From Kiritimatiellota bacterium (lineage in GTDB: Bacteria; Verrucomicrobiota; Kiritimatiellia; RFP12; UBA1067): a stretch of 51,558 bases of DNA. The stretch covers positions 1 through 51,558 of the forward strand of contig WRML01000001.1 of NCBI GenBank assembly GCA_009777165.1, given 5' to 3'. A program made the position numbers and the translations under genes. Position 1 is the stretch's first letter, and each line of letters starts with the position of its first letter. Positions 27,487 through 45,738 of this stretch are shown piece after piece. Below the pieces are notes generated by a model. The model had not been told where the DNA came from. It made no database searches and was given only the letters and a program-made list of their open reading frames with translations.

Positions 27487-27508
27487 GAAAAAAACTCCGT
27501 TTTTTTTA

Positions 27509-28546: not shown

Positions 28547-29446
28547 TTACTTTTTCTCCTCGGTGCGGATGCGGTTGATCTCCGCCGCGTGGTTCCTGAG
28601 GAACTCGCGTTTCGCCTTGCCCGGGGGCAGGGCGTCGTACTCCTGCGCGCGGTTCAGCACCGGCGCGGGCGCGGCGGCCGGCGCGGGCCGCCGGTTCCAG
28701 AACGGCGTCTGCTTCGGCGCGTCCAGGTCAAGCTGCGCCACGAGCGCCTTGGCGGCCTCGCGGTTCTTGACGTAGAGCGCCTTGAACGCCTCGCGGTTCT
28801 TGATCGCGCCGCCGGCGCGGTTGGCGATCTCCTCCGCCTCCCTCCCGGCGGCCTCGTCCTGCAGGGCCGCCATGCCTTCGGTGAGGCTGGCGATCGCGGC
28901 GAGGATGTCCTCCTCCGCCGCCGTCTCCGGCAGCCCCAGCGCAAGCGCTATCTTCGTGTAGTCCATAATTGGACCTCCATTTTGGCCCGGGGGCGTGGCC
29001 GCCCCCGGCGATCTGTTCAACACCGGGGCCACCGGCAGATTGGGCTTGTTGATGAGCGCGACGCTGACGAGGCGGTCGGGCCTCCCGTCCTTGTCGAGCG
29101 TCCACCCTGGCGAGACGAAGCGGTAGCCGCGCCCGTTCACCGCCGCCGCGCCCTCTGGCGTGAAGCGGAAGTCCCCGTAGAGCCCGCCCGCCTCGACCGC
29201 GAGGTTGCCGCACCATGCGGCCGCGCGCGTGCTGCCGCCCTCCTCGGCGGCGTGGTCGAAGTCCACCAGCACCTCCGCCGCCGAGTTGCGCGCGACGGCC
29301 TCGAACGCGGCGCGGTCGCACACCTGCACGACGTTCTCGGGCTTGCCGCCCGCGCCCTCGCGGACGTTCGGGTAGCGGCCGAACGGCGCGATCTGCACCC
29401 TCAGCACGCCGCTCTCCGGCACTCTCGTCATTTTCGTCTCGTTCAT
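28547..29446 (-). CDS. Mu gpI-like prohead protease / scaffold
   Basis: ATG 29446 behind GGAGGAAG. VDFDHAAEEGGSTRAAAWCGNLAVEAGGLYGDFRFTPEGAAAVNGRGYRFVSPGW matches the gpI family pattern. Coiled-coil C-terminal half. Confidence 0.7.
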   Translation of the reverse strand: MNETKMTRVPESGVLRVQIAPFGRYPNVREGAGGKPENVVQVCDRAAFEAVARNSAAEVLVDFDHAAEEGGSTRAAAWCGNLAVEAGGLYGDFRFTPEGAAAVNGRGYRFVSPGWTLDKDGRPDRLVSVALINKPNLPVAPVLNRSPGAATPPGQNGGPIMDYTKIALALGLPETAAEEDILAAIASLTEGMAALQDEAAGREAEEIANRAGGAIKNREAFKALYVKNREAAKALVAQLDLDAPKQTPFWNRRPAPAAAPAPVLNRAQEYDALPPGKAKREFLRNHAAEINRIRTEEKK

Positions 29447-29623
29447 GGTTGACTTCCTCCAACGGGTTGTGCTACTCTCAAAATCACTGGCGGGAAACCC
29501 CCTGCTCCTAACCAATACGTGTTGCGGGGATGTGTAGGTGGGAATCTGGACTGGCGAAAGCCGACGAGGGTCAGCCCCATCAACCTGCCTTTAGGCGCTC
29601 TGGAGTCTCTCCAAGGCGCCATT

Positions 29624-32308
29624 TTAGTTTTCACCACGCGCATGATACTTCCCTCCACTTTTGTACCGTTTAAACTCGCCCTCGGTGATAGACCCGTAAC
29701 TGGTAATCAGCAACCGCCCGTCACGTTTCTTGGTCAGGACCGCGGCCTTGTCGCCGTGAATCAGGTAGAGCTTGCCGCGGTCCTTGTCGTGTTTGTAGGC
29801 CTCGCCCTGCTGCAGGACGCCTGGCAGCCCGCGGACAGCGTCCTTGCCGTGCTTGGCTTGGATGTGGCTCAGCCCGTGGCCGCCTTTGTGTTCGTTTGCG
29901 GGGTTGCCTGGCGCGCCGTAGTCCATCCCGATCCATCCCGTGTCCCGGCGGTACATCGCCTTCGGCTCCGCGCCTTTCCCGGCGGAGAGGATGCCCGTCG
30001 CGACGGATGCCCCGCGCTTCTGGTTCAGCCCCGGGTCCGCCGCCAGCCTCCCCTCGTCCGCCGTGCCGTGGCCGTCGCTTGAGCCCTTGGTCTCATGCTC
30101 GCGCGGGCGCCCCCCCCCTGTCCGGTCGCCGCCGCCCTCGGCGAACGTCCCGTCCGCCTCGCGGTTCGGGTTCCCGTTCATCACGGGCGGCGTTTCCTCC
30201 GGCGCGGCCGCGCCGGCATACGCCCGCGCGGCATCCTCCTCAAAGACCTTCTCCAGCGCGGTCGGCTTCTTGGCGGCCGCCGTGATTGCGCCGTCCAGCT
30301 CCTCCGCCAAGGCGTTGAGAAGTTGAGAAGTTGAGGAATTGAGAAGTTGAGAAGTTCCAACTTCTAAACTTTTCAACTTCTCTACTTCTGTACTTTTCAA
30401 CTTCTCAACTTCTGTACTTTTCGACTTCTCAACTTCTGTACTTTTTAACTTCTCAACTTCCCTCATCTTTTCCATCAGCTCTTTCGCCTTCTCGCGCCAC
30501 GGGGCCATGTCCTCGCTTAAGGCGGCCATGGCGGCCTGTGCCGCGTCCGCGCCGCGGGGGGTGTCCTTGCCCGCCCCGCCCCCCTCCGGGCGTTTTGCAA
30601 CGGGTTCTCGCCGTTTTGCAACGGGGTCGCGGTTGAGAAGTCGAGAAGTTGAGGAATTGAGGAGTCGAGAAGTTGAGGAATTGAGAAGTTGAGAAGTTGA
30701 GGAATCTAAAAGTCGAGAAGTTGAGGAATCTAAAAGTCGAGAAGTTGAGGAATCTAAAAGTCGAGAAGTTGAGGAATTGAGAAGTTGAGAAGTTGAGGAA
30801 TCTAAAAGTCGAGAAGTTGAGGAATCTAAAAGTCGAGAAGTTGAGGAATCTAAAAGTCGAGAAGTTGAGGAATCTAAAAGTCGAGAAGTTGAGGAATCTA
30901 AAAGTTGAGAAGTTGAGGAATTGAGAAGTTGAGAAGTTCCAACTTCTAAACTTTTTAACTTCTCTACTTCTGTACTTTTCAACTTTTCAACTTCTGTGCT
31001 TCTCACCGTCCAGCCGCTGCGCTCGCTCACCTCGGCGGGGTCGACGGCCAGCCCGGCGGCGGCGGCCTTGCCGGCGGTGGCGAAGACCTCGTCGGCGGTG
31101 GGCTGGCTCTCGGTCTCGAAGTCGAACGCCGCGAGGTGGGGGCGGCCGGGGAACGCGGCGTCGAGCAGCCGGTCCGTGACCTGCCGGTTGATCGCCGAGG
31201 CGATGACGGCCGCGTCGCGGCGGACGATGCTCTTCCACGTGTCGGCGTGGACGCCGCTGGCGCCCTGCCCGATGCCCGTGGGCCCGGAGAGGCTGGTGAA
31301 CACCCCCCCCGTCGCCATCAGCACGACCAGCTCCTGCTGGTGCTGGATGAACTGCGCGAACGGGCTCTGGGCCCGCGCGGCGTCCGCGTACTTCACGTCC
31401 GACCCGGCGGGCAGCGCGCCGCTGCCGCCGTCCGCCACCTTCTCCGCCGCGGCCATCCACTCGCGCTGCCGGGACGGGTCCGTCTCCGGCGGCATGATGA
31501 TGATGACGGGCGGGATGCCGTAGCGCTCCACGAACATGCCCCACTTTTTCTCCCCCAGCGCCGCGCGCACGTAGATGCCCAGCGCGGGGTAGTTGACGTG
31601 CCTCGCGCGCACCAGCGAGCAGAGCTCGCCCGGCCCGACCGGCACCACGCGCCCCGTGGCGAACTGCGTCAGCACGCCGTCCGCCTCCGGGTTCCAGTAC
31701 CACTGCCCCGTGCGGGGGTCGCGCACGAAGTTCCAGCTGTCGAAAAGCTCGAAGCGGTCCACGCCGCGCCCGCCGTCGGCCCACACCGGCGCCGTGTGGG
31801 CGAAGCCCCGGAAGAACGCCGTCGCCAGCCGCTCGACCGCCTCCCAGAGGTTCGCGTCCTCGAGGTCCCCGAACACGCCCAGCAGGAAGTCCTCCTGCTC
31901 GCGCGCCAGCCCCTCCAGCCCGTTCAGCCGGGAGGCCTTGCCGGACTTCACGCGGACGGTCCAGTCCAGGTCCGCCATCGCCCCCCCGCGCCGCTCGGTG
32001 CAGATGAAGAGCGTGGGGTCCGCGGCCTCGATCTCGTTGTAGAGCCACTGGAGGCGCACGGTGTTGCCGAGGCGGGCGGCGTCGTAGATCGCCTGGGCCT
32101 CGCGCAGGGTCAGGTTGCGCAGCGGGTTCGTCGCCTCGATCCACGCGGCGGCGTTCCGGTAGGCGCGGCCGGGCCCGCGCTCGAGCGCGAACGGGGCGGC
32201 GCCGCCCCCTTTTGAAAGGGGGGGGCGGTATATGCGCCCCTCCGAAGGATGGGGAAATTCCGCCGGGGGTTTGTTCTTCCGGGGGTCCGGTCTCGGATGC
32301 TTGCTCAC
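29624..32308 (-). CDS. portal protein (DUF935 / Mu gp29-like) with two in-frame repeat blocks and a ~300-aa C-terminal extension
   Basis: GTG 32308 overlaps the terminase stop (GTGA). N-terminal ~445 aa are portal-like (NLTLREAQAIYDAARLGN...). Continuous 894-aa frame through 30314..30996. Confidence 0.7.
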   Translation of the reverse strand: MSKHPRPDPRKNKPPAEFPHPSEGRIYRPPLSKGGGAAPFALERGPGRAYRNAAAWIEATNPLRNLTLREAQAIYDAARLGNTVRLQWLYNEIEAADPTLFICTERRGGAMADLDWTVRVKSGKASRLNGLEGLAREQEDFLLGVFGDLEDANLWEAVERLATAFFRGFAHTAPVWADGGRGVDRFELFDSWNFVRDPRTGQWYWNPEADGVLTQFATGRVVPVGPGELCSLVRARHVNYPALGIYVRAALGEKKWGMFVERYGIPPVIIIMPPETDPSRQREWMAAAEKVADGGSGALPAGSDVKYADAARAQSPFAQFIQHQQELVVLMATGGVFTSLSGPTGIGQGASGVHADTWKSIVRRDAAVIASAINRQVTDRLLDAAFPGRPHLAAFDFETESQPTADEVFATAGKAAAAGLAVDPAEVSERSGWTVRSTEVEKLKSTEVEKLKSLEVGTSQLLNSSTSQLLDSSTSRLLDSSTSRLLDSSTSRLLDSSTSRLLDSSTSQLLNSSTSRLLDSSTSRLLDSSTSRLLDSSTSQLLNSSTSRLLNSSTSRLLNRDPVAKRREPVAKRPEGGGAGKDTPRGADAAQAAMAALSEDMAPWREKAKELMEKMREVEKLKSTEVEKSKSTEVEKLKSTEVEKLKSLEVGTSQLLNSSTSQLLNALAEELDGAITAAAKKPTALEKVFEEDAARAYAGAAAPEETPPVMNGNPNREADGTFAEGGGDRTGGGRPREHETKGSSDGHGTADEGRLAADPGLNQKRGASVATGILSAGKGAEPKAMYRRDTGWIGMDYGAPGNPANEHKGGHGLSHIQAKHGKDAVRGLPGVLQQGEAYKHDKDRGKLYLIHGDKAAVLTKKRDGRLLITSYGSITEGEFKRYKSGGKYHARGEN
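30314..30462. repeat. octamer-repeat hairpin block 1 inside the portal ORF
   Basis: GTTGAGAAGTTGAGAAGTTGAGGAATTGAGAAGTTGAGAAGT turns at TCC into AACTTCTAAACTTTTCAACTTCTC... (about 100 nt). Confidence 0.85.
30632..30996. repeat. 24-nt tandem repeat / hairpin block 2 inside the portal ORF
   Basis: About 12 units of GAGGAATCTAAAAGTCGAGAAGTT and variants. The same GAGAAGTTCCAACTTCTAAAC turn as block 1, then a short inverted arm. Confidence 0.9.
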
Positions 32309-33639
32309 AGGCTGCTCCTCCTCTCGAATGCCACGGGCTTGAACGCCGGGCCGCCGCCCGATCCGACAGCCCGCAATGCCAGCGCGAGCGCGGTGCAGCG
32401 GTCGCTGTGGCCTTCCTTCGTGCGGCGCGCCTCGTAGCTGTACTCGCCGTTCTTGACGATCTGCTGCATCTCGTGCAGGTCCTCGCGCACCTCGACGTCC
32501 ACGGGTACGCGCACCTTGACGGGTGCCTCGAACGCGCGGCGCAGCTTGGGGAAGATGTCGCGCTTGAATTGCGTGGTGAATGTGCAGAGCTCGGCCTTGC
32601 CGAACCGGTGTTTGGCGGGGTCATACGCGCCGACGGCCTTCTCGACGTGGTCGCCGAAGCCGATGCCGGGACCCGTATAGTCCAGGCACGCGCGCCGTGA
32701 GGCGCGGATACGCGGTATCAGCACCGCCTCCTGGTCAGGGGTGGGCATGTCGCGAAGTACCAGTACCTCGCGCGTCCAGTAAACGTCCCCGACCTTCTCC
32801 AGTGTCCAGCACACGGTCGGGTCGTTGCTGCGCCCGAAGTCAATGCCGAGGTAAAGCGCCGCGCACGACTCCGGGGCGAAGATCGCGGGGTCGGCGAACG
32901 TGCTCGCGGACGCGCTCTCCGCCAGCGCGATGATGTCGTAGGGCAGGAGGCAGTTGGACGAGTCCAGGAACTCGCACATGTACTCCTGCGCCCATGCGGT
33001 CTCGTCGTCAATCGCCTCGCGCAGCGCGTTGACGTTCGTGCCGAGCGCGGGCGCCGCGTCGAGGATTGTTGTCTTGTGGACACTCCAAGACTTGGCATCA
33101 TTGCACAGTTTGTAAAACCTCGCGCCGCGCCCGCCCTTGCCGTTGGCGGTCGAGGAGATGAACATCTCCTTCAGCCCCCGCAGCGGATTCGAGACGGACG
33201 GGAAGATCGCCCGCCACGTCGCGTCCGGGTCCTCGAAGAACGCGAACTCGTCCATCCACACGTGCGCCGAGAACCCGCGCACGGTGTCCGGATTGCTCGG
33301 CACGGCGATGATTCGGGACTTGTTCGCGAACACGATGGTGGCGGACCTCATCAGCGCGCCGGGCGCGTCGCGCTCGTCGAGCTGCTCGGCGATGGCGAAC
33401 GCGAACGCCTCGCACCAGTCGCGGCACTTCAGCACCGCCTCGTAGCTCTGCCGCTCGGAGGGCGACACGATCAGCACATCCGTCTTGGGCTGGATCATCG
33501 CTTTTCTGACGCACCTTGCCGCGCCCGTGAAGCTCTTGCCGATCTGGCGCGACGCCAGCCACACGGCGAACCGCGCGGGGTCGTCGTACACGTTCCGCTG
33601 AAACGGCAGCATCAGGTCTAACGGGCTAACCGCGCTCAT
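32305..33639 (-). CDS. terminase large subunit (Mu gp28-like)
   Basis: 444 aa. LASRQIGKSF Walker-A-like block. Placed upstream of the portal with overlapping stop/start. Confidence 0.75.
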   Translation of the reverse strand: MSAVSPLDLMLPFQRNVYDDPARFAVWLASRQIGKSFTGAARCVRKAMIQPKTDVLIVSPSERQSYEAVLKCRDWCEAFAFAIAEQLDERDAPGALMRSATIVFANKSRIIAVPSNPDTVRGFSAHVWMDEFAFFEDPDATWRAIFPSVSNPLRGLKEMFISSTANGKGGRGARFYKLCNDAKSWSVHKTTILDAAPALGTNVNALREAIDDETAWAQEYMCEFLDSSNCLLPYDIIALAESASASTFADPAIFAPESCAALYLGIDFGRSNDPTVCWTLEKVGDVYWTREVLVLRDMPTPDQEAVLIPRIRASRRACLDYTGPGIGFGDHVEKAVGAYDPAKHRFGKAELCTFTTQFKRDIFPKLRRAFEAPVKVRVPVDVEVREDLHEMQQIVKNGEYSYEARRTKEGHSDRCTALALALRAVGSGGGPAFKPVAFERRSSL

Positions 33640-35849: not shown

Positions 35850-36299
35850 TCAAAATCTAACAGGATGTCCTGACAAATAATTTCTTGAAGTACTCAGACA
35901 CCAGCACAATGATAGCAACCTCTGCGACAGTTCCCGTGAATGGGACGCAAATATTACAGCAGACGTATCATCTGTATCATCTTCTTCAATCCTTGTATAA
36001 ATGAGCCTTTTTGCTTCAAATGATTTTAATACTGCTTCAGCTAAAGAATCCTTTTTCCAGCAGAAATTACGTTCATCACTTGGGATAACCATTTCCATGA
36101 TAAGATCGGTCAACTGGTTCTTAGGCGCAACTATACATATTACTGTCATCGACACATATTTTTCACCCTCTAACACAAGTGATTCATGGGCAAACCCGTT
36201 TGAATCCATCGCTTTTTGATAGAGCATCTGGAACGTATAATGCTTAAGCCATTCTGTATATGCGTTTATACATGGTGCAAGTGACATTTTTTCGTTCAT
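35850..36299 (-). CDS. hypothetical 149-aa protein co-transcribed with the repressor (AT-rich)
   Basis: ATG 36299 behind GGAGG. No recognisable motif. GC far below the prophage average. Confidence 0.5.
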   Translation of the reverse strand: MNEKMSLAPCINAYTEWLKHYTFQMLYQKAMDSNGFAHESLVLEGEKYVSMTVICIVAPKNQLTDLIMEMVIPSDERNFCWKKDSLAEAVLKSFEAKRLIYTRIEEDDTDDTSAVIFASHSRELSQRLLSLCWCLSTSRNYLSGHPVRF

Positions 36300-36318
36300 A
36301 ACACACCCTCCAACCTTC

Positions 36319-36522
36319 TTAAACTTCAGTAACCCTGTCAACATCAGCCAATTGCTTCCCGCACCACGGGCAATTTTTCTCTTTGAGACATTGAGTTAGA
36401 CCTCTTGTAACTCCGATAAAATTCTTACAAGAAAGGCATCTCATTTTACTAGGGATGGATGCACCTCTTTTTAGTCTATGAATCAAATCATTTGACCATT
36501 TCACAACAATGTCATCTTTCAT
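36319..36522 (-). CDS. zinc-ribbon protein (67 aa)
   Basis: ATG 36522 behind GAGGAGG. CLSCKNF ... CPWCGK pairs. Confidence 0.45.
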   Translation of the reverse strand: MKDDIVVKWSNDLIHRLKRGASIPSKMRCLSCKNFIGVTRGLTQCLKEKNCPWCGKQLADVDRVTEV

Positions 36523-36901
36523 TTCTTTCGCCTCCTCTATTGCCCTCAACGATTGCTTGAAGCTCATTAGTCCCCTTGAGGATGAAACCAAGAGCCTTAT
36601 TTACACGTGCGAGTTTCTGCTCTGCGCCTTGACACCGTTTCAACAAATCACCGTCATCACCTACTCTGTTTGGTGAATCACTTAATCCGAGTAGCCAATC
36701 TGTGGTTACTCCGCAATGAGTAGCAATCGCTAATAGAGCGTCTGCGTTAGGAGAGTGAACGTCTCTGACATATCTATCAACAGTCGCCTGACGAAGCCCG
36801 ACACGTCTAGCAAATGCACTAACTGACTCGTCTTTGATTAACTCATTAATTCGAGACGAAAAAATTGTTGAGACTTTTACTCTTTTTTGATTTGACACCA
36901 C
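36512..36901 (-). CDS. XRE-family (cI-like) repressor
   Basis: HTH SVSAFARRVGLRQATVDRYVRDVHSPNADALLAIATHCGVTTDWLLG. Divergent from the early operon. Confidence 0.7.
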   Translation of the reverse strand: MVSNQKRVKVSTIFSSRINELIKDESVSAFARRVGLRQATVDRYVRDVHSPNADALLAIATHCGVTTDWLLGLSDSPNRVGDDGDLLKRCQGAEQKLARVNKALGFILKGTNELQAIVEGNRGGERNER

Positions 36902-36987
36902 TACTCCTTTTTGTTTAATATGCTCCTCACGTTACGCGAAATGGTTTGATTGTAACACGAAACGGTTGAGGAATGAAAGGAGAAAGT
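36902..36987. promoter_or_regulatory. divergent early/repressor control region with repeated operator-like sites
   Basis: AT-rich 86 bp between divergent genes. Contains the similar direct repeats GTTACGCGAAATGG and GTAACACGAAACGG. Confidence 0.4.
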
Positions 36988-37173
36988 ATGAGTGCTGGAA
37001 AGGCGAAGGCGAAGAGGGGAAAAAGGAAGTGGAGGGCGGTGTACCGCGGGATCACGGCGCACGCGGCGGCGCTGGGGTGCACGCGGCCGCACCTGTGGAT
37101 GGTGCTGACGGGGCGCAGGCAGAGCAAGAGCCTGACGGCGCGGTACAACGCGCTGGTCAAGGCGCAGGGGTAG
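36988..37173 (+). CDS. Ner/Cro-like small DNA-binding protein
   Basis: ATG 36988 behind AAAGGAG. Basic N-terminus and HTH-like ITAHAAALGCTRPHLWMVLTGRR. Confidence 0.45.
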   Translation: MSAGKAKAKRGKRKWRAVYRGITAHAAALGCTRPHLWMVLTGRRQSKSLTARYNALVKAQG

Positions 37174-37243
37174 GAGGACGGATTTTAATCAGGAATTAGA
37201 AATTAGGAATTAGGAATTAGGAATTAGGAAAGGAAGACAGGAG

Positions 37244-37366
37244 ATGGAAAAATTCATGAATTGGGTTATTTGTTTGACTGCGTGCATGTTGTGTGTCTTT
37301 TTGTTCGTGGGCTTATTATTAATGATTGTGTTGATTGGCGAAGAGCTGGTCAAGGCGCTGGGGTAG
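37244..37366 (+). CDS. 40-aa single-TM peptide on an AT-rich cassette
   Basis: MEKFMNWVICLTACMLCVFLFVGLLLMIVLIGEELVKALG. Not in the ORF track. Bounded by ~90-nt direct repeats. Confidence 0.4.
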   Translation: MEKFMNWVICLTACMLCVFLFVGLLLMIVLIGEELVKALG

Positions 37367-37423
37367 GAGGACGGATTTACAGTCAGGAATTAGGAATTAG
37401 GAATTAGGAAAGGAAGACAGGAC

Positions 37424-37612
37424 ATGAAGGCATATAAAATCACATGGGAGCACGTCGAGGGCGACGGCATATTCACGCTGATGCAGGGAATGCCGAGCGG
37501 GACGCGCGGCGAGACCGTCTGGGCGGAAAGCGAGAAGGACGCGGTGGCGGCGTTCGAGGCCTGCCACCGCCACGGCAGCAGGCTGGTGAGCGTGAGGGAG
37601 GTGGCGCGATGA
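37424..37612 (+). CDS. hypothetical early protein (62 aa)
   Basis: ATG behind AGGAAAGGAAGACAGGAC. The stop overlaps the next start. Confidence 0.5.
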   Translation: MKAYKITWEHVEGDGIFTLMQGMPSGTRGETVWAESEKDAVAAFEACHRHGSRLVSVREVAR

Positions 37613-37992
37613 AGCGGGTCGGCGGGCGGGTGACATGGCTGTGCAGGCTCGACGGCGTTCTCGCGGAAAAGGTCAGGGAAGGGACGAAGCGCATGACGAT
37701 ATGCCGGGGCGGCCTCGTCGAGCCCGGGGACGTGCTGAGGCTGACCGTGGGCGACGACACGATCCAGCAGGTGACGGTGGTCGAGGCGCGGGACCTGTGG
37801 ATGATGGCACAGGTCAACGGCGAGTGCGTCGGCGTGGTCGCGAGGATCTGCGGGAACGGCATCGGGGCCGGTGAGCTCGGTGAGCTTGCGAGGATGAACG
37901 GGTTCGGGTCGGCCCCGGAGATGGTCCGGTTCCTGGACGGGAAGGGGTGTTTCCTTCACGGCATCTTCGACGGGCAAATCATCGGGTGGTGA
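37609..37992 (+). CDS. ASCH/PUA-like domain protein
   Basis: ATGA overlap with the upstream gene. GTKRMTICRGGLVEPGDVLRLTVGDD pattern. Confidence 0.4.
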   Translation: MKRVGGRVTWLCRLDGVLAEKVREGTKRMTICRGGLVEPGDVLRLTVGDDTIQQVTVVEARDLWMMAQVNGECVGVVARICGNGIGAGELGELARMNGFGSAPEMVRFLDGKGCFLHGIFDGQIIGW

Positions 37993-38004
37993 GGGGTACA
38001 GTGA

Positions 38005-38126
38005 GTAGCGGTTAGTGGTTAGTTTACAGTTTTTAGTTTTTAGTTTTTAGAGCAATGCCTCGAAGCGCATCAACTAAAAACTATAAACTAAAAACTCAAA
38101 ACTCAAAAAAAAACGGAGTTTTTTTT
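38005..38126 (+). repeat. 122-nt hairpin leader, copy 1
   Basis: GTAGCGGTTAGTGGTTAGTTTACAGTTTTTAGTTTTTAGTTTTTAG-AGCAATGCCTCGAAGCGCATCAA-CTAAAAAC... ending in A9-CGGAG-T8. The first 78 nt are identical to 40351..40428. Confidence 0.9.
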
Positions 38127-38408
38127 ATGGCACAGGCAGACATCTTCGCGCAGGGCGCAGGGCCGGGGTTCGCGGCGCTGGTGAGGAAACGGCTGGGGGC
38201 CGCGGAGTGGTTCGCGGTGCCGGACGTGGCGGGGGCGTTCAACGTGAGCGCGACGAGCGTCCACCAGTGGATCGAGGAGGGGCGGCTCGTGGCGGCGGAC
38301 ATCAACGCGGGCAGGGTGTCCGGCAAGGGGTCGCCGATGCGGCCGTACTGGCGCGTGACGCGCGCCTCGGCGGAGGCGCTGGCGGACAGGATCGAGCGGG
38401 GGTACTGA
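38127..38408 (+). CDS. excisionase-family HTH DNA-binding protein
   Basis: ATG 38127 directly after A9-CGGAG-T8. FAVPDVAGAFNVSATSVHQWIEEGRL. Confidence 0.5.
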   Translation: MAQADIFAQGAGPGFAALVRKRLGAAEWFAVPDVAGAFNVSATSVHQWIEEGRLVAADINAGRVSGKGSPMRPYWRVTRASAEALADRIERGY

Positions 38409-38410
38409 AG

Positions 38411-38833
38411 ATGAGTAGTCCGGGGGAGATGATGTTCGTGGCGAAGCCGGGCTACGGGCGGACGCGGGCGCGGCCGAACCCGATGGCGGCGGCGGTGCGC
38501 TCGGCGCGGGGATGCTGGCTGGCGTTCGCGACGGTCTGCTGGCTGCAGTTCGAGGCGGATGAGAACTGGCGGGTGCCGGAGAGCCTGCGCGTGAGGTCGC
38601 TGCCGGGCTCGTGCGCGGGGTGCGCGTTCGGGACGCGGGTGGCGTTTGATTCGCGCTGGCCGCTGTTCTGCGAGGCGGCGCACCGGATGATTCCGCGCCC
38701 GCCGTTCGACAGCGATACGCGGCGGGCGCCGTTCTGCCCGCTCGCCGAGGACGCGGGGGCAAGGCTGGAGCCGGGCAGGTGCCCGGCGGCGGAGAGGATG
38801 GCGGGGGAAGTTATACTTAGGAATGAGGAATGA
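38411..38833 (+). CDS. hypothetical Cys-rich early protein
   Basis: ATG 38411 lies 2 nt after the upstream stop. The C-terminal LRNEE residues are read from the junction repeat. Confidence 0.4.
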   Translation: MSSPGEMMFVAKPGYGRTRARPNPMAAAVRSARGCWLAFATVCWLQFEADENWRVPESLRVRSLPGSCAGCAFGTRVAFDSRWPLFCEAAHRMIPRPPFDSDTRRAPFCPLAEDAGARLEPGRCPAAERMAGEVILRNEE

Positions 38834-38891
38834 GGAATTAGGAATTTCGATGGCCGTCGATGGCGGTCGATGGCAGTCGAAATTCCTAATT
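38817..38891. repeat. junction hairpin element
   Basis: TTAGGAATGAGGAATGAGGAATTAGGAATT arm, (TCGATGGCNG)x3 core, AATTCCTAATT arm. Confidence 0.8.
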
Positions 38892-38912
38892 GAAAAAATC
38901 GGAGGCTTTTTT

Positions 38913-39152
38913 ATGACGGAAGGACAGAAGGACACAAGGACGGATGGACGGGTGGACTGCTGCACGGACACGGGCGGGTGCCCGGCGTGGCTGTTCGCCG
39001 TGGTGATGCTGGCGGCGCTCGTGATACTGGCGCTCACCGAGGGGGAGCCGGAGCCGTGCTACCCGGACCCGGTGTGCGAGATGTGCGGGCAGGTGCTGGA
39101 CGGGAGCCACACGCCGTGGTGTACGCCGGAATGGGAAGCGGAGGGGAAATGA
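38913..39152 (+). CDS. small membrane protein
   Basis: ATG 38913 behind A6-TCGGAGGC-T6. WLFAVVMLAALVILAL TM segment. Confidence 0.45.
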   Translation: MTEGQKDTRTDGRVDCCTDTGGCPAWLFAVVMLAALVILALTEGEPEPCYPDPVCEMCGQVLDGSHTPWCTPEWEAEGK

Positions 39153-40354
39153 GCATGGACTATCTGGAAAACGAGGCGTTCAGGCGGCTGTGCAATGAGC
39201 CGGACGTCAGGATTGACGATAACCACTACAGGGTTGACACGCACCAGCTCATGATCAAGCGCAGGCTTGAGGGCACGAGCGGCTGGAAGAGGCACCAGCG
39301 CTTCGACACGCACGAGGCGATGGAGCGGGCGTGGGCGGACATCAAGGGGATTGACGGGGCGGTGGCGGAGGATTATCTGTCATCGAACAAAACGAATGAA
39401 ACGAATAAAGGCATTCACGCGGATTCGTTGCATTCGATGACAGGGCTGTATGCGCCCTCCGCAGGAGGGAACACCCCCGGCCGGGATACCGGCCACCCCC
39501 TTTCAAAAGGGGGCTTGGGCGGCACCCCCTTTCAAAAGGGGGCGGTGGCGGCGCAGGGGCAGCTTTTCACGCGGCACGACGGCGCGCACACGGCGCAGGC
39601 GGTGTCGGAGCAGTACAGGCGGGCGGTGAGCGGGCTTCTGGAGGGTATCCGCTTCGGCGCGATGCTCCTGGACCTTCAGGACAGCTTGATAATTTGTCGC
39701 GACAAATTTTCAAGTTTCTTCGCCCACGGTGGGGACAGGAGGGGCGGGACTGGCGTCAAGGAGTGGCTTTCGGAGCATTGCCCGGAGGTTGACTACGGGT
39801 GGGCAATGAAGTTCAAGCGGCTTGCGGAGGGCGTGCTGGAGCATTGCAAGGTGCCTGCGGAAGTGCCGCTGGCGCTTGCCCTGCCGCAACCCTACGGCTT
39901 GGAACTGTATGCGCCCTCCGCAGGAGGGAACACCCCCGGCCGGGATACCGGTCTCCCCCTTTCAGAAGGGGGCTTGGGTGGCGCCCCCTTCGGGAAGGGG
40001 GCCGCGGAGGACGCGGAGGTTGCCGGGGACAAGAGGCTGGCGAAGGTCCGGCGGGAGGTCGCGCTGTTCCTTGAGGGGAAGAGCGCGCGGCAGCTGGAGT
40101 TCGAGTTCGGGCACAGGGAGCCGAAGCCGAGGGGGGGGGACAGGCGCAGCGGGATCAGGCTGACCGAGATCGAGAAGCATGAGTATGCGGTGGAGCGCGC
40201 GAGGCGGGACTGGACGAGGGCGCTGGCGGACATCAAGGCGCTGGTGGAGATGCAGACGCACCTGCTGCTGGACGAGGATATGCTGGCAAGGGGCGTGGAG
40301 GTCCTGGCGATCGCGAGGGACGGTCTCCGCGCGGCGCAGGGGAAGAGGAAGTAG
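39149..40354 (+). CDS. hypothetical early protein carrying two copies of a 97-nt multi-hairpin module
   Basis: ATGA overlap with the upstream gene; 401 aa. LYAPSAGGNTPGRDTG(H/L)PLS(K/E)GGLGG repeated at 39446..39542 and 39905..40001. Confidence 0.5.
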   Translation: MSMDYLENEAFRRLCNEPDVRIDDNHYRVDTHQLMIKRRLEGTSGWKRHQRFDTHEAMERAWADIKGIDGAVAEDYLSSNKTNETNKGIHADSLHSMTGLYAPSAGGNTPGRDTGHPLSKGGLGGTPFQKGAVAAQGQLFTRHDGAHTAQAVSEQYRRAVSGLLEGIRFGAMLLDLQDSLIICRDKFSSFFAHGGDRRGGTGVKEWLSEHCPEVDYGWAMKFKRLAEGVLEHCKVPAEVPLALALPQPYGLELYAPSAGGNTPGRDTGLPLSEGGLGGAPFGKGAAEDAEVAGDKRLAKVRREVALFLEGKSARQLEFEFGHREPKPRGGDRRSGIRLTEIEKHEYAVERARRDWTRALADIKALVEMQTHLLLDEDMLARGVEVLAIARDGLRAAQGKRK

Positions 40355-40472
40355 CGGTTAGTGGTTAGTTTACAGTTTTTAGTTTTTAGTTTTTAGAGCA
40401 ATGCCTCGAAGCGCATCAACTAAAAACTAAAAACTGTAAACTAAAAACTCAAAAAAAAACGGAGTTTTTCTT
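40351..40472 (+). repeat. 122-nt hairpin leader, copy 2 (upstream of the transposase)
   Basis: Near-identical to 38005..38126. Confidence 0.9.
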
Positions 40473-42521
40473 ATGATGGAGAAGATGGACGGGGGCACGG
40501 CGGCGGTGGCGTTGCCGTTGCTGGACGACACGGGGGCGCGGGCGCGGGCGGCGTGGCTGGAGGCGGCGTGCCGGGAGATACGGGGCGCGGGGCGCGGCAA
40601 GGTGGCGCGGATGCGGGCGATCGCGAGGGCGAACCCGCACAGGGTTGCGTTCGGGACGTTGAAGCGGCTCTACTACAGCTGGCTGGAGCATGGGGAGGAC
40701 GGGCTTGCGGATCTGCGCAAGGCGCGCAGGCCGGGGCGGGAGAACCCGTGGCTGGAGTGCTACAAGGCGTGGTGCGGGCGTCACAACAGGAGCAACCGGG
40801 GGGCGTGGCGGAAGATGCTCGAGGCGTTCCACTCCGGGGCGGAGATGGAGTGCGGGGTCGGGACGTGGCACGGGTGGTGGCGGGCGGAGCACGGCGCGCC
40901 CCCCCCGGCGCATTGCCCGGCGTCGTTCATCCCGAGGTGCGCGCGGTACGCGGGCCTGCAGCGGCTCTACAGGCGGGACCCGGCCTACGGGTTCAACCTC
41001 GCGGCGGAGCGGCTGGGGCGCAAGGCGGCGCACGCGCACATCCTGCCCGTGCTGCGGACGCGCGCGGGGCTGGCGTGCGGGCAGTACGTCGAGTGGGACG
41101 ACGTGCACCTGGACGTCGAGGTGGTGATGCCGGGGCAGGGCGTCATCGCGCGGCCGCAGGCGTTCGTAGGGTATGACGTGGCGAGCGGCATGATGGTGGG
41201 GCACACGCTGAGGCCGCAGTATCCGGAAGAAGTCAAAAAGCCAAGAAATGGAGAAGTCGAGAAGTCCAGGCGGAATAGTCTCAAGGAGCGTGAGTTCAGG
41301 TTTTTGCTGGCGCACTTCCACACGGACGTGGGCTTCCACCCGGGCGGCGTCGTCCACGTGGTGGAGCACGGGACGACGGCGGTGCGCGAGGGTCTGGAGC
41401 TGCGCTACAGGTCCATCCCGAGATACGGGGAGATGATACGCTTCGAGCGCTCGGGCTTCCTTTCGGAGGCAATCCACGCGGGGGTGTTCAAGGGGAACGG
41501 CGGCGGCAACCCCCGCCTGAAGGCGTACTGCGAGCAGGCCCACCGCAACCTGCATTCGGCGCTGGCGATGCTGCCGGGGCAGGTGGGGCAGGACGCGGAT
41601 CACCGTCCGGAGTCGCACGCCGCGCTGGTCAGATACGAGGCGGCGCTGCTGAGGGCCTGCGAGACGCTCCCCCCGGACGCGCTGGACCGCATTGTCCACA
41701 GGCTCATGGACTACGGCGCGTTTGCGCGGAACTTCGCCCTTTTGTGCGAGGCCCTGATGGACAGGGCCGACCACCGGATGGAAGGGTTCGGGGAGAAGCG
41801 CGTGACGCTGTTCCGCCTGGACGCGGCGCAGGAGTGGGTGCCGGTGTCGCGGCTTGACGACGAGCCTGAGGAGAGGCGCGCGGCGATCATCCAGTACCTG
41901 CGCAACAACCCCGAGTGCATCCTGAACAGGCAGATGTCGCGCCGCGAGGCGTGGGACGCGGGCAGGCGCGACCTGATCCGCGTCCCGATGCACGAGCTGC
42001 CGCTCATGCTCGACCCCTCCGACGCGCGGGAGGTCACGGTCAGGGACAACGGCACGTTCGAGTTCACGGACCAGTTCTACCACGGCCCGGACAAGGTCAT
42101 CTTTCATGCGCAGTGCAAGAGCCGCGCGGGGTTCATGCAAGCCCTTGTGCCGGGGTGCAGATATATGCTTTTCACCACGCCGTTCCACCATCAGGGCGTG
42201 ATCGTGGACAAGGCGAGCGGCAACGTCGTCGGCGTGTGCCAGCAGTACAGGCGCGCGCCGCGCTACGACCGCGACGCGATCGTGCGCGCGGCGGGGGCGC
42301 AGAACCATGACTTGGCGCAGAAGCTCCTGCCCATCCGTGGGCGGCGCCAGGCAGAGGCGGAGCAGCGGCTGGCGATGATCGGGCACAACGCGGACGTGCT
42401 GAGGGAGGCGAGGCAAACCCACGGCTTGGACACAAGCCACCCCCTTTCAAAAGGGGGCGATGAGAATTTCTGGGCCGAGGAGGATGAGGGCATCCCCGAG
42501 GCCGTCAGAGAGGCACACTAA
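40473..42521 (+). CDS. MuA-like DDE transposase
   Basis: 682 aa. N-terminal HTH-like TLKRLYYSWLEHGEDGLADL. YVEWDDVHLDVEVV and NPRLKAYCEQAHRNLH catalytic-type blocks. Followed by the MuB-like ATPase. Confidence 0.7.
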   Translation: MMEKMDGGTAAVALPLLDDTGARARAAWLEAACREIRGAGRGKVARMRAIARANPHRVAFGTLKRLYYSWLEHGEDGLADLRKARRPGRENPWLECYKAWCGRHNRSNRGAWRKMLEAFHSGAEMECGVGTWHGWWRAEHGAPPPAHCPASFIPRCARYAGLQRLYRRDPAYGFNLAAERLGRKAAHAHILPVLRTRAGLACGQYVEWDDVHLDVEVVMPGQGVIARPQAFVGYDVASGMMVGHTLRPQYPEEVKKPRNGEVEKSRRNSLKEREFRFLLAHFHTDVGFHPGGVVHVVEHGTTAVREGLELRYRSIPRYGEMIRFERSGFLSEAIHAGVFKGNGGGNPRLKAYCEQAHRNLHSALAMLPGQVGQDADHRPESHAALVRYEAALLRACETLPPDALDRIVHRLMDYGAFARNFALLCEALMDRADHRMEGFGEKRVTLFRLDAAQEWVPVSRLDDEPEERRAAIIQYLRNNPECILNRQMSRREAWDAGRRDLIRVPMHELPLMLDPSDAREVTVRDNGTFEFTDQFYHGPDKVIFHAQCKSRAGFMQALVPGCRYMLFTTPFHHQGVIVDKASGNVVGVCQQYRRAPRYDRDAIVRAAGAQNHDLAQKLLPIRGRRQAEAEQRLAMIGHNADVLREARQTHGLDTSHPLSKGGDENFWAEEDEGIPEAVREAH

Positions 42522-42537
42522 GAAAAGGAAGACAGAC

Positions 42538-43647
42538 ATGAATGAGCAAACCCCCGGCTTGGACACAAGCCACCCCCTTTCAAAAGGGGGCTGCGAAGAC
42601 GACATGATCCAGAACGCGAACAGGGCGCGCATCCCGATCCCCGGCGACACGGTGAAGATCGAGCTGGCGAAACTGCGCGAGGCGGGCAAGATAAGCGAGG
42701 CGGACGAGGCCGCCGTCTGGTGGTTCTACAGCTACGCGAAGGACCACAAGTGGTCGCTCGCCGAGGCGGGCGAGGCCATCGGCTACAACTCCTCGACCGT
42801 GCACCGCCTGTTCAACGGCACCTACGGCGCGAGCCCGGACAAGGTCATCGAGGCCGTCCTGCGCTTCCGCAAGGTCGCCGTCGAGCGGGCGAAGCGCAAG
42901 GACATCGGCTACATCGAGACGTCAACGTGGCGGAAGGTCAGCGCGATCTGCGACTCCGCCTTCTACGACGCCCTGCCCGCGTTCATCTACGGCGCCAGCC
43001 AGATCGGCAAGACCGAGGCCCTGGAGGAGTACACGCGGCGCAACAACCACGGCCAGACCCGCTACCTGCGGATGCCGGCGGCGCCGACGTTCACCTACTT
43101 CGTCAAGATACTCGCCGAGGCCTGCTACATCTCGCACCGCCAGCAGCACGACGTCATGCGCCAGCGCATCATGAACGTGCTCGACAAGCGGAACCTGCTC
43201 ATCGTGGACGAGGTCCACCTCGCCATCATCACCGCGACGGACATCACCGCCAAGAAGGTGATGGAGTTCCTGCGCGAGGTGTACGACCGCACCAAGTGCG
43301 GGATCGTCCTCTGCGGCACAGAGGTGTTCCGCGACGAGTTCGAGCGCGGCCGCCTGAACACGGTGTTCAAGCAGTTCCGCCTCAGGGGGATGCTGGAGCT
43401 GCAGCTGCCGGACGCGCCGCCGAAGTCGGACATCGCCAGGATCGCCGCGTCGTTCGACCTGCCCGCGCCGGACGAGGCGACGCTGGGCATCATCCAGGCG
43501 ATGCTCAAGGAGTCCGGGATCGGCAAGTACATCAAGTTCCTGCAGTACGCCCACGGCGTGAGCGTCTCGCGCAAGGAGAAGCTCGGCTGGGGGCATTTCG
43601 CGGACGCCTACGAGGGCGTGAGGCAGTTGTCGAGGGCAGGAAAGTAA
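42538..43647 (+). CDS. MuB-like AAA+ transposition ATPase
   Basis: ATG 42538 behind AAAGGAAGACAGAC. Walker A GASQIGKT and Walker B LLIVDEVH. Confidence 0.7.
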   Translation: MNEQTPGLDTSHPLSKGGCEDDMIQNANRARIPIPGDTVKIELAKLREAGKISEADEAAVWWFYSYAKDHKWSLAEAGEAIGYNSSTVHRLFNGTYGASPDKVIEAVLRFRKVAVERAKRKDIGYIETSTWRKVSAICDSAFYDALPAFIYGASQIGKTEALEEYTRRNNHGQTRYLRMPAAPTFTYFVKILAEACYISHRQQHDVMRQRIMNVLDKRNLLIVDEVHLAIITATDITAKKVMEFLREVYDRTKCGIVLCGTEVFRDEFERGRLNTVFKQFRLRGMLELQLPDAPPKSDIARIAASFDLPAPDEATLGIIQAMLKESGIGKYIKFLQYAHGVSVSRKEKLGWGHFADAYEGVRQLSRAGK

Positions 43648-43658
43648 GGAGGATGCAA

Positions 43659-44321
43659 ATGAGCAGGCAAGAGAAAACCATGAGGGACGCGCTCGGGCAG
43701 GATGTTCCGCTGGGCTACGTGAAGCCGTACGACAGGGTGCGGGATAAAATGGTGCGGCGTATCCACAAGCGCTGGGAGGCAGCAAGGGCGGTGCTGGAGA
43801 AAGTCCACGCCGAGACGCTGGCGGACATCGCGGCAATCGCGAAGGCGCGCGGCGACGCGGAGATGAACCCCTCCGAGAAAGGCAATATGCAGGTGTCCAG
43901 CTTCGACGGCAACATCTGCGTCAGCGTCAACCAGCGCTACGAGATCAGGCTCGACGACCGCGTGGTCCAGGCGCGCGAAAAGATGTACGTCTATGCGCGT
44001 GGGCTGGTCGAGAAGGTCGGCGGCGACGACGGCAGGGCGCTCTTCGAGATCATCAAGCAGGCGTTCGAGGTCACGCGGTCCGGGTCGCTCTCGATGGGGC
44101 GCGTCGCGAACCTGCTCAAGATGAACATCACGCACAAGGACTGGGCGGAGGCGAAGGCGCTCCTCGTCGAGTCCATGGCCCCCGAGAAAGGCAAGTGCTA
44201 CATCCGCGTCGAGCGGCGCGGGAGCCGCCAGCAGGACATGAAGGCGGTACGGCTCGACATCGCCGACTGCTGGGTGGAAAGCACACACGAAGGCACGGAG
44301 GTCACAAAGGAGGGGCAATGA
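43659..44321 (+). CDS. DUF3164-family Mu-like phage protein
   Basis: AAGGAGG upstream. KGNMQVSSFDGN ... YIRVERR pattern is typical of DUF3164. Confidence 0.65.
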   Translation: MSRQEKTMRDALGQDVPLGYVKPYDRVRDKMVRRIHKRWEAARAVLEKVHAETLADIAAIAKARGDAEMNPSEKGNMQVSSFDGNICVSVNQRYEIRLDDRVVQAREKMYVYARGLVEKVGGDDGRALFEIIKQAFEVTRSGSLSMGRVANLLKMNITHKDWAEAKALLVESMAPEKGKCYIRVERRGSRQQDMKAVRLDIADCWVESTHEGTEVTKEGQ

Positions 44322-44530
44322 AAGTTTATAAATGCCCCGCTTGCGGCAACGGGCCCGTTTTCGTTAAGGCCTCATGCTCCGTAAAGGGATACAGCGGAAA
44401 ATTAAGCAGGTGGTATTCGTACTGCTCGGGGACAGTCCGATCCCCCCATGAGAAACTTACGGCCGGCTACGGCAAGACCGGGGGCGAGGCCGCCGGGAAG
44501 TGGAATGATGCCGCGAAGGGAGGAGGCTGA
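44318..44530 (+). CDS. small zinc-ribbon-like protein
   Basis: ATGA overlap with the upstream gene. MKVYKCPACGNGP. Confidence 0.4.
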   Translation: MKVYKCPACGNGPVFVKASCSVKGYSGKLSRWYSYCSGTVRSPHEKLTAGYGKTGGEAAGKWNDAAKGGG

Positions 44531-44532
44531 CA

Positions 44533-44994
44533 ATGGCAACCAAAAACCAGCGCGTCGCGTTCTTCAAGCTGTGGGGCAAGGCGAAGCGCGAGATACGCGT
44601 CTTGGTTGGCGCGGCGGACGACGAGTCCGCCCGCCACGCCTGGATACGCCGGCACACCGGCTACACCGACAGCATCAACGCCGTCAAGCCCGGCGCGGAC
44701 TTCGGCAGGCTCATGCTCGAGACCGCCATCATCGCCGACGACTACGCCGCCGTCGCCAAATGGAGCATGGACGTGGCGAACAGGTGGCGGCACCTCATCG
44801 GCGAGCAGCTCCGCCGGATCGGCGAGATTACGGGCGAGGCGAAGCCGTGGGCATACGCGCGCGGTATATTCAAGCACCTCCGCCTGCCCGAGTCCTGGGA
44901 GGACATCCCCGAGGACCGGCTCGCCGACGTCTTCAAGATGCTCGACACCCACCGCCGCCGCCTGATCAGAAAGGCGGCGCAGGAGGCATCGTGA
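44533..44994 (+). CDS. GemA-like (Mu gp16 / DUF1018) regulatory protein
   Basis: 153 aa, the last early gene before the right end. Loose similarity to the GemA pattern. Confidence 0.4.
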   Translation: MATKNQRVAFFKLWGKAKREIRVLVGAADDESARHAWIRRHTGYTDSINAVKPGADFGRLMLETAIIADDYAAVAKWSMDVANRWRHLIGEQLRRIGEITGEAKPWAYARGIFKHLRLPESWEDIPEDRLADVFKMLDTHRRRLIRKAAQEAS

Positions 44995-45050
44995 CGAGAG
45001 CGCGGCAATGCGCCGGACCCTTTAGGCGGGCCCGCGTTTGCAGAAACAAA

Positions 45051-45130
45051 GAAACCGTCCTGCATGATACTTGCGGGGCGGTTTTTTTTCTCAACTGTTT
45101 GATATACCGCGCCTTCAGGCGGTCTTTTTT
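45051..45130 (+). terminator. two tandem rho-independent terminators ending the early arm
   Basis: ACCGTCC...GGGGCGGT followed by T8, then ACCGCGCCTTCAGGCGGT followed by CTTTTTT. Confidence 0.5.
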
Positions 45131-45303
45131 CTCAGGTACGGAAATCCGCCCTTTGTCACCATAAGTCCCTAATATTCAAACGTTTTCCGCCCTTTTCCCA
45201 CTTTTTCACTTCGAATCGTTCAGGACACAGGTGCGACCGATGGGGCACGGGATGCACCTAAAAGAGGCATCCCGATGGGATGCCATGATTTTTTTGCGTT
45301 CTC

Positions 45304-45373
45304 TTCTACCGAAAGAAACATCCCTAACGGGATGTTGTTACGGTATGCTTTAAAAGTGATTTCACTATATGCA
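45304..45373 (-). repeat. right terminal inverted repeat of the prophage
   Basis: CGAAAGAAACATCCCTAACGGGATGTTGTTACGGTATGCTTTAAAAGTGATTTCACTATATGCA ends in CA. It is the inverted partner of 13749..13818. Confidence 0.8.
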
Positions 45374-45738
45374 TGCTCTGTGCGACTCTGCGGTCCTCCG
45401 TGTACCTCTGTGTAACTTTAACTGCATACCCATCTTGTCCCGATGATGACGAGACCCTTCCTAACATCACAACCGTAAAAAGATCCGCCAACCAGATGGC
45501 GGCAGGAGGACAAAAAACTACAATAGAGAAGTAGCCCGGCTTATTGGATGTTCGGCCGGCCTCCTGCCAAGTGTTCCGCTTCCGCTTCGACAGGGCCCGA
45601 ATTAGGGTTTTTACTCCCCTTACTTTCCGTACAGGCCGACAACCTTTTTACCGGGCTAAAACGGAAGCCCCGCGCCCCCGTTTAAGCGCCCCCGTTTAAG
45701 CGGCGTTTCGCGAGCGGCGTTTCGGGGCGTTTCGGGGC

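Follow-up and report, generated by a model that had tools for sequence, protein, structure and literature searches.

A 40-46-nt palindromic repeat inside host and Mu-like prophage genes of a Kiritimatiellota contig

Why does the same 18-nucleotide (nt) hairpin recur inside a host galK gene and inside four genes of a Mu-like prophage? This question is raised by contig WRML01000001.1 of a Kiritimatiellota metagenome-assembled genome (MAG). The sequence studied here, referred to as the window, is this whole contig of 51,558 nt, and of this genome the analysis covered the contig only. The prophage occupies ~14-45 kb and has a G+C content above that of the flanking host DNA. An earlier reading of the same DNA (the original prediction) proposed that the hairpin, which we call the clamp (CCCCCTTTCAAAAGGGGG), is a selected nucleic-acid structure that also has to be translatable. 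We believe, with a probability of roughly 0.7, that the clamp belongs to a selfish miniature palindromic repeat, similar to repetitive extragenic palindromes (REPs) and Rickettsia palindromic elements (RPEs), which is tolerated and translated inside host and prophage genes. Judged from sequence, this reading draws on the insertions, on their positions in tolerant segments, on covariation in a second hairpin next to the clamp (hairpin 1), and on the spread of the unit through unrelated genomes and phages. Translation of the units is suggested by the intact open reading frames (ORFs) that contain them.

The pattern CCCCCTTNNNNNAGGGGG occurs at eight sites in the window, and 0.00 matches are found in dinucleotide-preserving shuffles. 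The eight clamps are where the original prediction placed them, except that its range for the portal copy (32205-32226) is slightly long, as the 18-mer ends at 32222. All eight are located within long intact ORFs in the sense orientation, and the reading frames listed for them earlier are correct. The carrier genes and their clamps are as follows.

8227-9420, minus strand: galK, with Pfam GalKase and GHMP domains; clamp at 9128-9145
29624-32308, minus strand: Portal_Mu ORF of 894 amino acids (aa), a late gene; clamp at 32205-32222
39149-40354, plus strand: 401-aa early protein without a family match, early operon; clamps at 39496-39513, 39525-39542, 39955-39972 and 39984-40001
40473-42521, plus strand: Mu A-like transposase (A), early operon, phrog_310; clamp at 42440-42457
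42535-43647, plus strand: Mu B-like AAA/TniB protein (B), early operon, phrog_296; clamp at 42573-42590

Alignment of the copies shows that the clamp is the 3' half of a two-hairpin unit of 40-46 nt. The unit contains a leader CAAACCCCCG, the variable hairpin 1, one or two bases (usually A), the clamp and a final C; in the modules described below, the leader is AACACCCCCG instead. The two hairpins of the unit are 16 and 18 nt long, with stems of 6 and 7 bp, and a 46-nt repeat family of four copies shows 76-100% identity to its reference. The units and related hairpins in the window are listed below.

9127-9166, minus strand: galK unit, consisting of CAAACCCCCG, CCCTTCGGG, TA, the clamp and C; reads KPPPFGYPLSKGG
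32204-32272, minus strand: portal unit with a nested hairpin, at the N-terminus of the portal ORF; reads KPPAEFPHPSEGRIYRPPLSKGG
32232-32258, plus strand, antisense to the portal gene: the nested hairpin (TATGCGCCCCTCCGAAGGATGGGG type), whose plus-strand reading can be aligned with the first hairpin of M1 and of M2
39446-39542, plus strand: module M1 in the early gene, with hairpins at 39455-39469 and 39479-39494 and clamps at 39496-39513 and 39525-39542; reads LYAPSAGGNTPGRDTGHPLSKGGLGGTPFQKG
39886-39903, plus strand: half-unit, the 5' half of the A/B type (CAACCCTACGGCTTGGA), ending in the hairpin-1 loop exactly where M2 starts
39905-40001, plus strand: module M2, the second four-hairpin copy in the early gene; reads LYAPSAGGNTPGRDTGLPLSEGGLGGAPFGKG
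42414-42458, plus strand: A-tail unit in the C-terminal tail of transposase A, 21 residues before the stop; reads QTHGLDTSHPLSKGG
42547-42591, plus strand: B-head unit, codons 4-18 of the Mu B-like gene; reads QTPGLDTSHPLSKGG

Hairpin 1 has a 5-6-bp stem and a 4-nt loop, and its sequence differs between copies while the pairing is kept. For example, GGCCGG/CCGGCC in one form and GGCTTG/CAAGCC in another differ by two pairs that are altered on both sides. In the hairpin-1 alignment, 98.5% of cells are paired, compared with 34-69% after a shift of the partners by one to three columns. The same holds across genomes, where a perfect stem of at least 5 bp is found in 61% of 36 distinct spacers and in 3.7% of shuffles, and TTC and TTCG-type loops are frequent among the spacers. 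The compensatory stem changes that had been claimed are thus real in the hairpin upstream of the clamp. The clamp variant CCCCCTTCGGGAAGGGGG stays palindromic, but its four changes are at the hairpin tip. The clamp loops are found as TTTCAAAA and as TTTTGAAA inside identical flanks. The fold of the unit is more stable than that of shuffled sequence (z about -2.9 to -3.6), and M2 holds one hairpin pair as G-U on the sense strand.

The early gene contains the unit in a larger arrangement. As had been predicted at ~90% identity, a 97-nt four-hairpin module occurs twice: M1 and M2 have nine differences (~91% identity, counted from the aligned strings), and their first 47 nt are identical. With slightly longer ends, 39446-39551 and 39905-40010 are 89% identical over 106 nt. 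Both copies also hold the hairpins CCCTCCGCAGGAGGG and GGCCGGGATACCGGCC. Each module is a mosaic of a separate hairpin (TATGCGCCCTCCGCAGGAGGG), a full unit, and an 11-nt spacer with a second clamp, which sits at a fixed distance of 29 nt after the first. The separate hairpin recurs, on the same DNA strand, inside the hairpin-1 loop of the portal copy, and the half-unit at 39886-39903 abuts M2 at the same part of the structure. This nesting or abutting, seen twice, is behaviour typical of mobile repeats. Searches with nhmmer profiles of the unit and the module found no additional copies in the window; a weak match at 9669-9699 was rejected as a mere poly-G/poly-C run.

Comparisons with homologues suggest that the units were added to genes that already existed. 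In galK, the insert is a net 27 nt (9 aa) and is missing in all 59 closest orthologues (identity up to 84%), which read DDVAP-SKSDTW where the window reads DDVKPPPFGYPLSKGGSDTW; the 27 extra nt were confirmed in the DNA against two orthologues. An AlphaFold model of the protein (36 sequences) has a mean pLDDT (predicted local distance difference test) of 87.6, and its sole stretch below 50 is residues 91-98, which by our indexing is within the insert. These residues form a modelled loop between a strand (76-81) and a helix (102-116), and the same loop varies in comparison with human GALK1. The portal unit aligns with a unit of an unrelated phage contig, L002 (GGCGGAATACCGCC followed by the clamp), except for a 27-nt insertion in the hairpin-1 loop. 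Portal homologues have 13-47 unrelated residues before a conserved W-x-E-x-x-NPLR motif; the window protein has 55, of which 23 come from the unit. No alternative start was seen by eye between the unit and this motif, and the unit would therefore be translated if the portal protein is made.

M1 lies in the N-terminal part of the early protein, and most homologues of this protein align only from about residue 147. The site of M2 is a gap or a short variable linker in the early-protein homologues of loci L126, L129, L128, L131, L161 and L137. The A-tail motif is present in none of 55 transposase homologues, in which the tail varies in sequence and length. The B-head unit is 98% identical to the A-tail copy, and B homologues start with M-EDAQ or MKQ-ETE, right at the residues that follow the unit in the window (MNE-QTPGLDTSHPLSKGG-C-EDD). 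We found no clamp of the unit type in 80 related Mu-like prophage loci (636 kb, fetched with the transposase profile). These comparisons suggest that the copies are all specific to this lineage and were added to genes that were already there, in the A tail presumably so. The A-tail and B-head units (42413-42458 and 42546-42591) form direct repeats in the same phase, 133 nt apart, and recombination between them would remove the stop of A and the start of B and give an in-frame A-B fusion protein.

Is it the peptide or the DNA that is repeated? The clamps had been described as always read as PLSKGG. This is overstated, as PLSKGG or PLSEGG is read at six of the eight, including the portal copy (RPPLSKGGG), and in both modules the second clamp encodes PFQKGA or PFGKGA instead. 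One could imagine that PLSKGG and its flanks are a functional peptide (a linker, tag or recognition site) recruited repeatedly, with the hairpin as a by-product of its codons. The six copies encoding P-L-S-K/E-G-G and their location at termini and linkers, frequent places of action for short linear motifs, fit such a peptide, but we regard the idea as close to refuted. PLSKGG is absent from the orthologues of all five carrier genes. The copies are near-identical even at synonymous sites, the second clamp of each module is in another frame, and the pairing in the DNA persists despite free variation of the residues upstream of the motif. Between M1 and M2, there are four synonymous and four non-synonymous codon changes. 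A HMMER search with the 40-aa module peptide against 1.84 billion representative proteins found no true match beyond the protein itself; a match to a eukaryotic granulin-repeat protein was rejected as spurious and compositional, and a protein-word search with the same peptide gave no candidate. The galK insert is modelled as a disordered loop. By these comparisons the repeated entity is a nucleic-acid element and not a conserved peptide. Of the selected, translatable structure proposed earlier, the nucleic-acid part is thus retained: copies reach 98% DNA identity, pairing is kept, and orthologues lack PLSKGG. A selected role in the genes is not supported, considering that the structure is found in 0 of 80 related prophage loci and 0 of 59 galK orthologues, and that one copy is in a host sugar-kinase gene.

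The unit is not confined to this contig. The exact 18-mer was found in 12 IMG/VR contigs and in at least 110 stretches of a one-genome-per-species collection, where no Kiritimatiellota record is among the matches listed. The full architecture (leader, variable hairpin, (C)A, clamp) is present in IMG/VR phage contigs and in MAGs of Burkholderiales, Beta- and other Proteobacteria and Bacillota, and the isolate names Cu122, Th196, Lab288, Nt197, Nct323 and Pcu381 suggest, in our own reading of them, termite-gut projects. A CAATCCCCCG variant is found in Oscillospiraceae, Pseudoflavonifractor sp. 60 and a Eubacteriales MAG. Among Firmicutes, certain copies read CCCCCGTC, a form that is not conserved. 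The unit is often intergenic in other bacterial genomes, and many copies elsewhere are followed by CTTTT, which is terminator-like. In locus L043 of a termite-gut Proteobacteria MAG, it is part of non-coding mosaics, next to tandem repeats and to REP-like hairpins that bear a GTAG tag. At 2250-3500 of L043, several elements of the mosaic recur at intervals of a few hundred bases: hairpins with the GTAG tag (GTAGGGGCGCGATTTATCGCGCCC), a hairpin of the sequence CCCTCTCCCGCAAGCGGGAGAGGG, the clamp unit, and tandem repeats of the form (CGCAAAGAA)n. In long cellular ORFs, the clamp lies in or beside the Pfam-matched parts of UvrD-, AddB-, MmeI- and Type ISP-type proteins and of a DEAD-type helicase, and reads PFQKG, or PLLKGG or PPFERG in antisense. 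Copies in phage genes include the following.

L002, N-terminus of the ORF immediately upstream of the large terminase: sense, MPDENKPPAEYRHPLSKGGC
L002, internal in the portal: sense, a decayed copy of the A/B subtype, QTHGLNTSHPLLKVG
L001, internal in a phrog_706 protein: sense, PFQKGA
L009, C-terminal tail of the head protease: sense, PFQKGA
L010 and L012, about residue 405 of a Mu-type portal: antisense

Two hairpin-1 subtypes are common to the window prophage and the unrelated contig L002. Three IMG/VR scans for the window's own hairpin subtypes gave no match, nor did blastn of the A-tail unit and M1 against 50,697 deposited phage genomes, and a literature search for the exact DNA and peptide strings returned no relevant paper. 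L001, an IMG/VR contig from an AT-rich phage (43% G+C), shows several GC-rich hairpin inserts that stand out, some inside ORFs (for example, at the C-terminus of ORF 559-1734 and in ORF 7322-8464) and some in an apparently intergenic cluster at ~2137-2490.

A rough census of 52 units outside the window gave 31 sense and 21 antisense copies relative to the nearest or enclosing long ORF. The bias in frame and orientation on which the original prediction relied is therefore real in the window, where it reflects five to six independent events, and is no rule of the family, which has antisense and intergenic copies and copies in other frames. The original prediction was to be abandoned if the motif proved equally common in all frames, orientations and intergenic DNA, and for the family at large the census and the intergenic copies come close to this.

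Several observations weigh against a mobile repeat. The prophage contains seven of the eight clamps, and ~20 kb of host DNA only one. The 47 identical nt of M1 and M2 could be explained by local duplication or gene conversion instead of two insertions. The A tail is no longer than the tails of its homologues, so that an insertion there is deduced and not seen directly. Neither a target-site duplication nor an exact boundary is definable at the galK junction, for which the nearest empty sites are only ~80% identical. A transposase of the expected kind is absent from the window, as the scanned ORFs gave no Y1 match (Pfam, PHROGs). Finally, orientation and phase are uniform among the five or six independent events in the window. 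The chance of this would be ~1 in 600 to 1 in 3000 by our own estimate, given five open options of equal probability.

Some of these observations would be accommodated if there were no transposition at all, and hairpin-prone sequences were spread by ectopic gene conversion, local duplication or quasi-palindrome template switching, the last of which perfects stems without selection. Neither a transposase nor a target-site duplication was found; M1 and M2 lie within one gene, and the A and B copies are 133 nt apart. The four adjacent changes in the clamp-2 variant resemble a templated event, and the TTTCAAAA and TTTTGAAA clamp loops in the same flanks resemble a loop inversion. We nevertheless think it improbable. 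Full units with differing hairpins 1 are present in the unlinked galK, portal, A and B genes and in many unrelated genomes and phage contigs, and the two hairpin-1 subtypes are common to the prophage and the unrelated L002. Moreover, conversion can act only on homologous sequence that is already in place, and the orthologous empty sites provide none.

The uniform orientation and phase need a separate explanation. The unit is stop-free in all three sense frames and in two of three antisense frames. We therefore rejected stop codons as the cause of the bias, and survival of open frames fails to explain the shared orientation and phase, because five of the six frames are open. The phase used is the only one whose peptide (QTPGLDTSHPLSKGG) has no Trp, Cys or Phe and no cluster of basic residues, and the bias could therefore plausibly result from selection for the product most like a linker. 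The absolute orientation of the units tracks gene direction on both strands. Targeting by replication direction was judged unlikely, since between the two arms of the prophage and galK the orientation changes along with the direction of the gene; the minus strand contributes only two copies to this. Selection on the product would fit an orientation that follows the gene, and so would insertion into transcribed DNA. We did not treat the orientation bias in the window as evidence of function, because the events are so few.

It is also a point for another explanation, in which the hairpins are cis-acting structures of the phage, either RNA stem-loops (for ribosome pausing, mRNA protection or the A:B ratio) or protein-bound DNA palindromes, kept translatable because they are intragenic. 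All independent window copies are sense and in one phase with five of six frames open, two near-identical copies flank the stop of A and the start of B, the folds are more stable than shuffles, the G-U pair of M2 is kept on the sense strand, and the prophage has other palindromic cassettes upstream of genes. Such a role is unlikely in our view. The hairpins are missing in 80 of 80 related prophage loci, and no homologue of A, B, the portal or the early protein has them; one lies in the host gene galK, whose orthologues have none. In other phages, the unit is at non-equivalent positions, in other frames and antisense, and in other bacteria it is intergenic. The bases that follow the window clamps (CTTGGG, CGGTGG, CCGCGG, CGATGA, CTGCGA, CTCTGA and CGGCGC) contain no T-run, hence the hairpins are not Rho-independent terminators, and no clamp in 37000-45500 was called one. 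An Rfam cmscan of 36000-45500 with E values up to 10 matched nothing on the units and only matched AT-rich operator repeats.

Returning to the selfish miniature repeat, we suggest the following course of events. The element would have been added to host galK and to the prophage genes for the portal, the early protein (twice), and transposase A and B. Units may also combine with other small hairpins and give mosaics such as the 97-nt module. Copies would persist only where they are harmless, adding whole codons without a stop to the end of a protein, to a linker between domains or to a loop on the surface, and the tolerated copies would be translated as a coil rich in Gly, Pro and Ser. The most likely route of movement is an enzyme supplied in trans that recognises folded single-stranded hairpins, as REP-associated tyrosine transposases (RAYTs) presumably handle REPs. 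Exposed hairpin loops may be preferred targets, as hinted by the two nested or abutting insertions at the hairpin-1 loop, the only positional clue. The uniform orientation and phase would come from selection of the peptide that disrupts least, and perhaps from insertion tied to transcription, and not from a function. A bolder and more doubtful possibility, though one that we rate above the rivals discussed here, is that the unit is one widespread, undescribed micro-transposon family that moves between phyla, perhaps carried by phages where habitats are shared, as in the termite gut. A dedicated enzyme would use the invariant C5-TTTCAAAA-G5 hairpin of the unit as a handle, and insertion would be into hairpin loops that are exposed or into transcribed single-stranded DNA, which would explain both the nesting in the hairpin-1 loop and the strict sense orientation here.

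Comparison with described elements suggests that the unit behaves like an RPE, an intragenic REP or an ORF-bearing transposable element of the miniature inverted-repeat type (MITE), and departs from them in tag, size and number of stems. We know of no counterpart of its invariant second hairpin in described REPs. RPEs are palindromic, occur in frame in conserved protein genes as well as between genes, and are translated with effects that look neutral or mildly harmful; their absence from orthologues makes them recognisable (Ogata et al. 2000, via PMC2229807). They are 105-146 bp long, form a single long stem-loop and are restricted to Rickettsia, and RPE-1 ends in CGTC (PMC2229807, PMC3733652). 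Like them, the unit forms in-frame inserts in intact ORFs whose orthologues have none, with translation presumed; unlike them, it has 40-46 nt and two short hairpins, is found across phyla, and is in a prophage of a Kiritimatiellota MAG. REPs are GC-rich hairpins of 20-40 bp with conserved structure and variable stems, which occur as singles, dimers and mosaics, mostly outside genes; intragenic REPs are often in replication and repair genes, notably those for DNA repair and helicases, and are translated in frame (PMC3733652). RAYT, an IS200/IS605-type tyrosine transposase, is believed to mobilise them in the form of folded single strands (PMC3733652). The unit shares the short GC-rich stem-loop palindrome, and its clamp, like intragenic REPs, is present in UvrD-, AddB- and MmeI-type genes. 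It differs in that the window copies have no GTAG or CGTC tag (hairpin 1 is flanked by CCCCCG or CCCACG at its 5' side and by A, TA or CC at its 3' side), that eight of eight window copies are intragenic, and that no RAYT gene was seen among the scanned ORFs of the window.

ORF-bearing MITEs such as the 107-bp form of Correia/NEMIS, ERIC and YPAL are non-autonomous small repeats (PMC2229807). MITEs have at least 100-200 bp, terminal inverted repeats that match those of an insertion sequence (IS) element, and target-site duplications that are often TA (PMC2229807). The C5...G5 ends of the unit are complementary but belong to internal hairpins, and no duplication is visible at the galK junction, with empty sites of ~80% identity. 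Short mobile hairpins inside coding sequence that are kept in the mRNA are also represented by mitochondrial GC clusters, Magnusiomyces byps and the T4 gene 60 insert (PMC5009743, bioRxiv 10.1101/2022.08.31.505936). The ribosome jumps over byps and the gene 60 insert, whereas the unit is stop-free, adds whole codons (27 nt in galK) and needs no bypass; no matched take-off and landing codons were found by eye at the units.

The prophage and its surroundings have further features. The left host flank contains genes for a glucuronyl esterase, an aldose epimerase, galK and a phosphoglucomutase, and the right flank contains SDR, FGGY kinase and GatB genes (Pfam scan). The prophage layout is divergent, with late genes on the minus strand, an early operon on the plus strand and a repressor gene between them, an arrangement that we take to be closer to BcepMu than to Mu. 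Its transposase family has no Pfam match and a weak PHROG match, and no close relatives of the B protein were found in IMG/VR. In addition to the carriers, we located the following genes.

13909-14736: Dam-like methylase gene at the left edge of the prophage
28547-29515, minus strand: head protease, late gene
32305-33639, minus strand: large terminase, late gene
36512-36901, minus strand: HTH_3 repressor gene
38127 (ATG), plus strand: winged helix-turn-helix (wHTH, ner-like) gene, early operon
plus strand: DUF3164 protein, early operon

Other repeats are also present in the prophage. A direct repeat of 126 nt (38004-38129 and 40350-40475, 96% identity) precedes the wHTH gene and the transposase gene (ATG at 40473). 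Each copy contains an inverted repeat of ~30 nt made of AGTTTTTAG-type words and ends in AAAAAAACGGAGTTTTTTTTATG, and it looks like a duplicated cassette of operator, promoter and translation start. The motif A7-CGGAG-T8-ATG occurs six times with zero expected, always on the gene strand and ending at a start codon, and its A-run and T-run are able to pair around GGAG. It also follows a palindromic cassette in the unrelated L002 (11640-11665), and it may be a translation-initiation or regulatory signal shared by the phages of this host group.

20568-20590, 26905-26927 and 27484-27506, minus strand: A7-CGGAG-T8-ATG
38107-38129, 38893-38915 and 40453-40475, plus strand: A7-CGGAG-T8-ATG

The portal ORF holds AT-rich tandem repeats of 8 and 24 nt at 30314-30460 and 30638-31005 (minus strand), in which (GAGAAGTT)n meets (AACTTCTC)n as long inverted repeats. 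In frame, they read STEVEKLK... and then SSTSQLLN/SSTSRLLD..., and they separate the Portal_Mu domain from a C-terminal domain. L002 has a similar cassette between genes, and by its sequence the portal array is a second type of palindromic DNA apparently translated within one of the prophage genes. Another palindrome family, AATTAGGAATTTCGATGGCCGTCGA / TCGATGGCAGTCGAAATTCCTAATT, is apparently intergenic at 18565-18617, 23867-23937, 26047-26103 and 38836-38891, and is also found in L002 at 5199-5286.

These observations suggest that the sequence family of the unit is new, while the kind of element, a translated miniature palindromic repeat, is already known. They would mean that REP/RPE-like selfish hairpins are able to colonise the transposition and packaging genes of Mu-like phages (portal, A and B) and are carried there as extra peptide, and annotators of phage proteins and structure predictors should expect such inserts. 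The inserts may also be used as markers of a shared host, since the prophage and the unrelated L002 have two unit subtypes in common. One study reports that perfect palindromes trigger some defence systems (PMC11707656), and given such triggering the palindrome load of a phage genome may be costly. The near-invariant clamp across several phyla points to a recognition partner.

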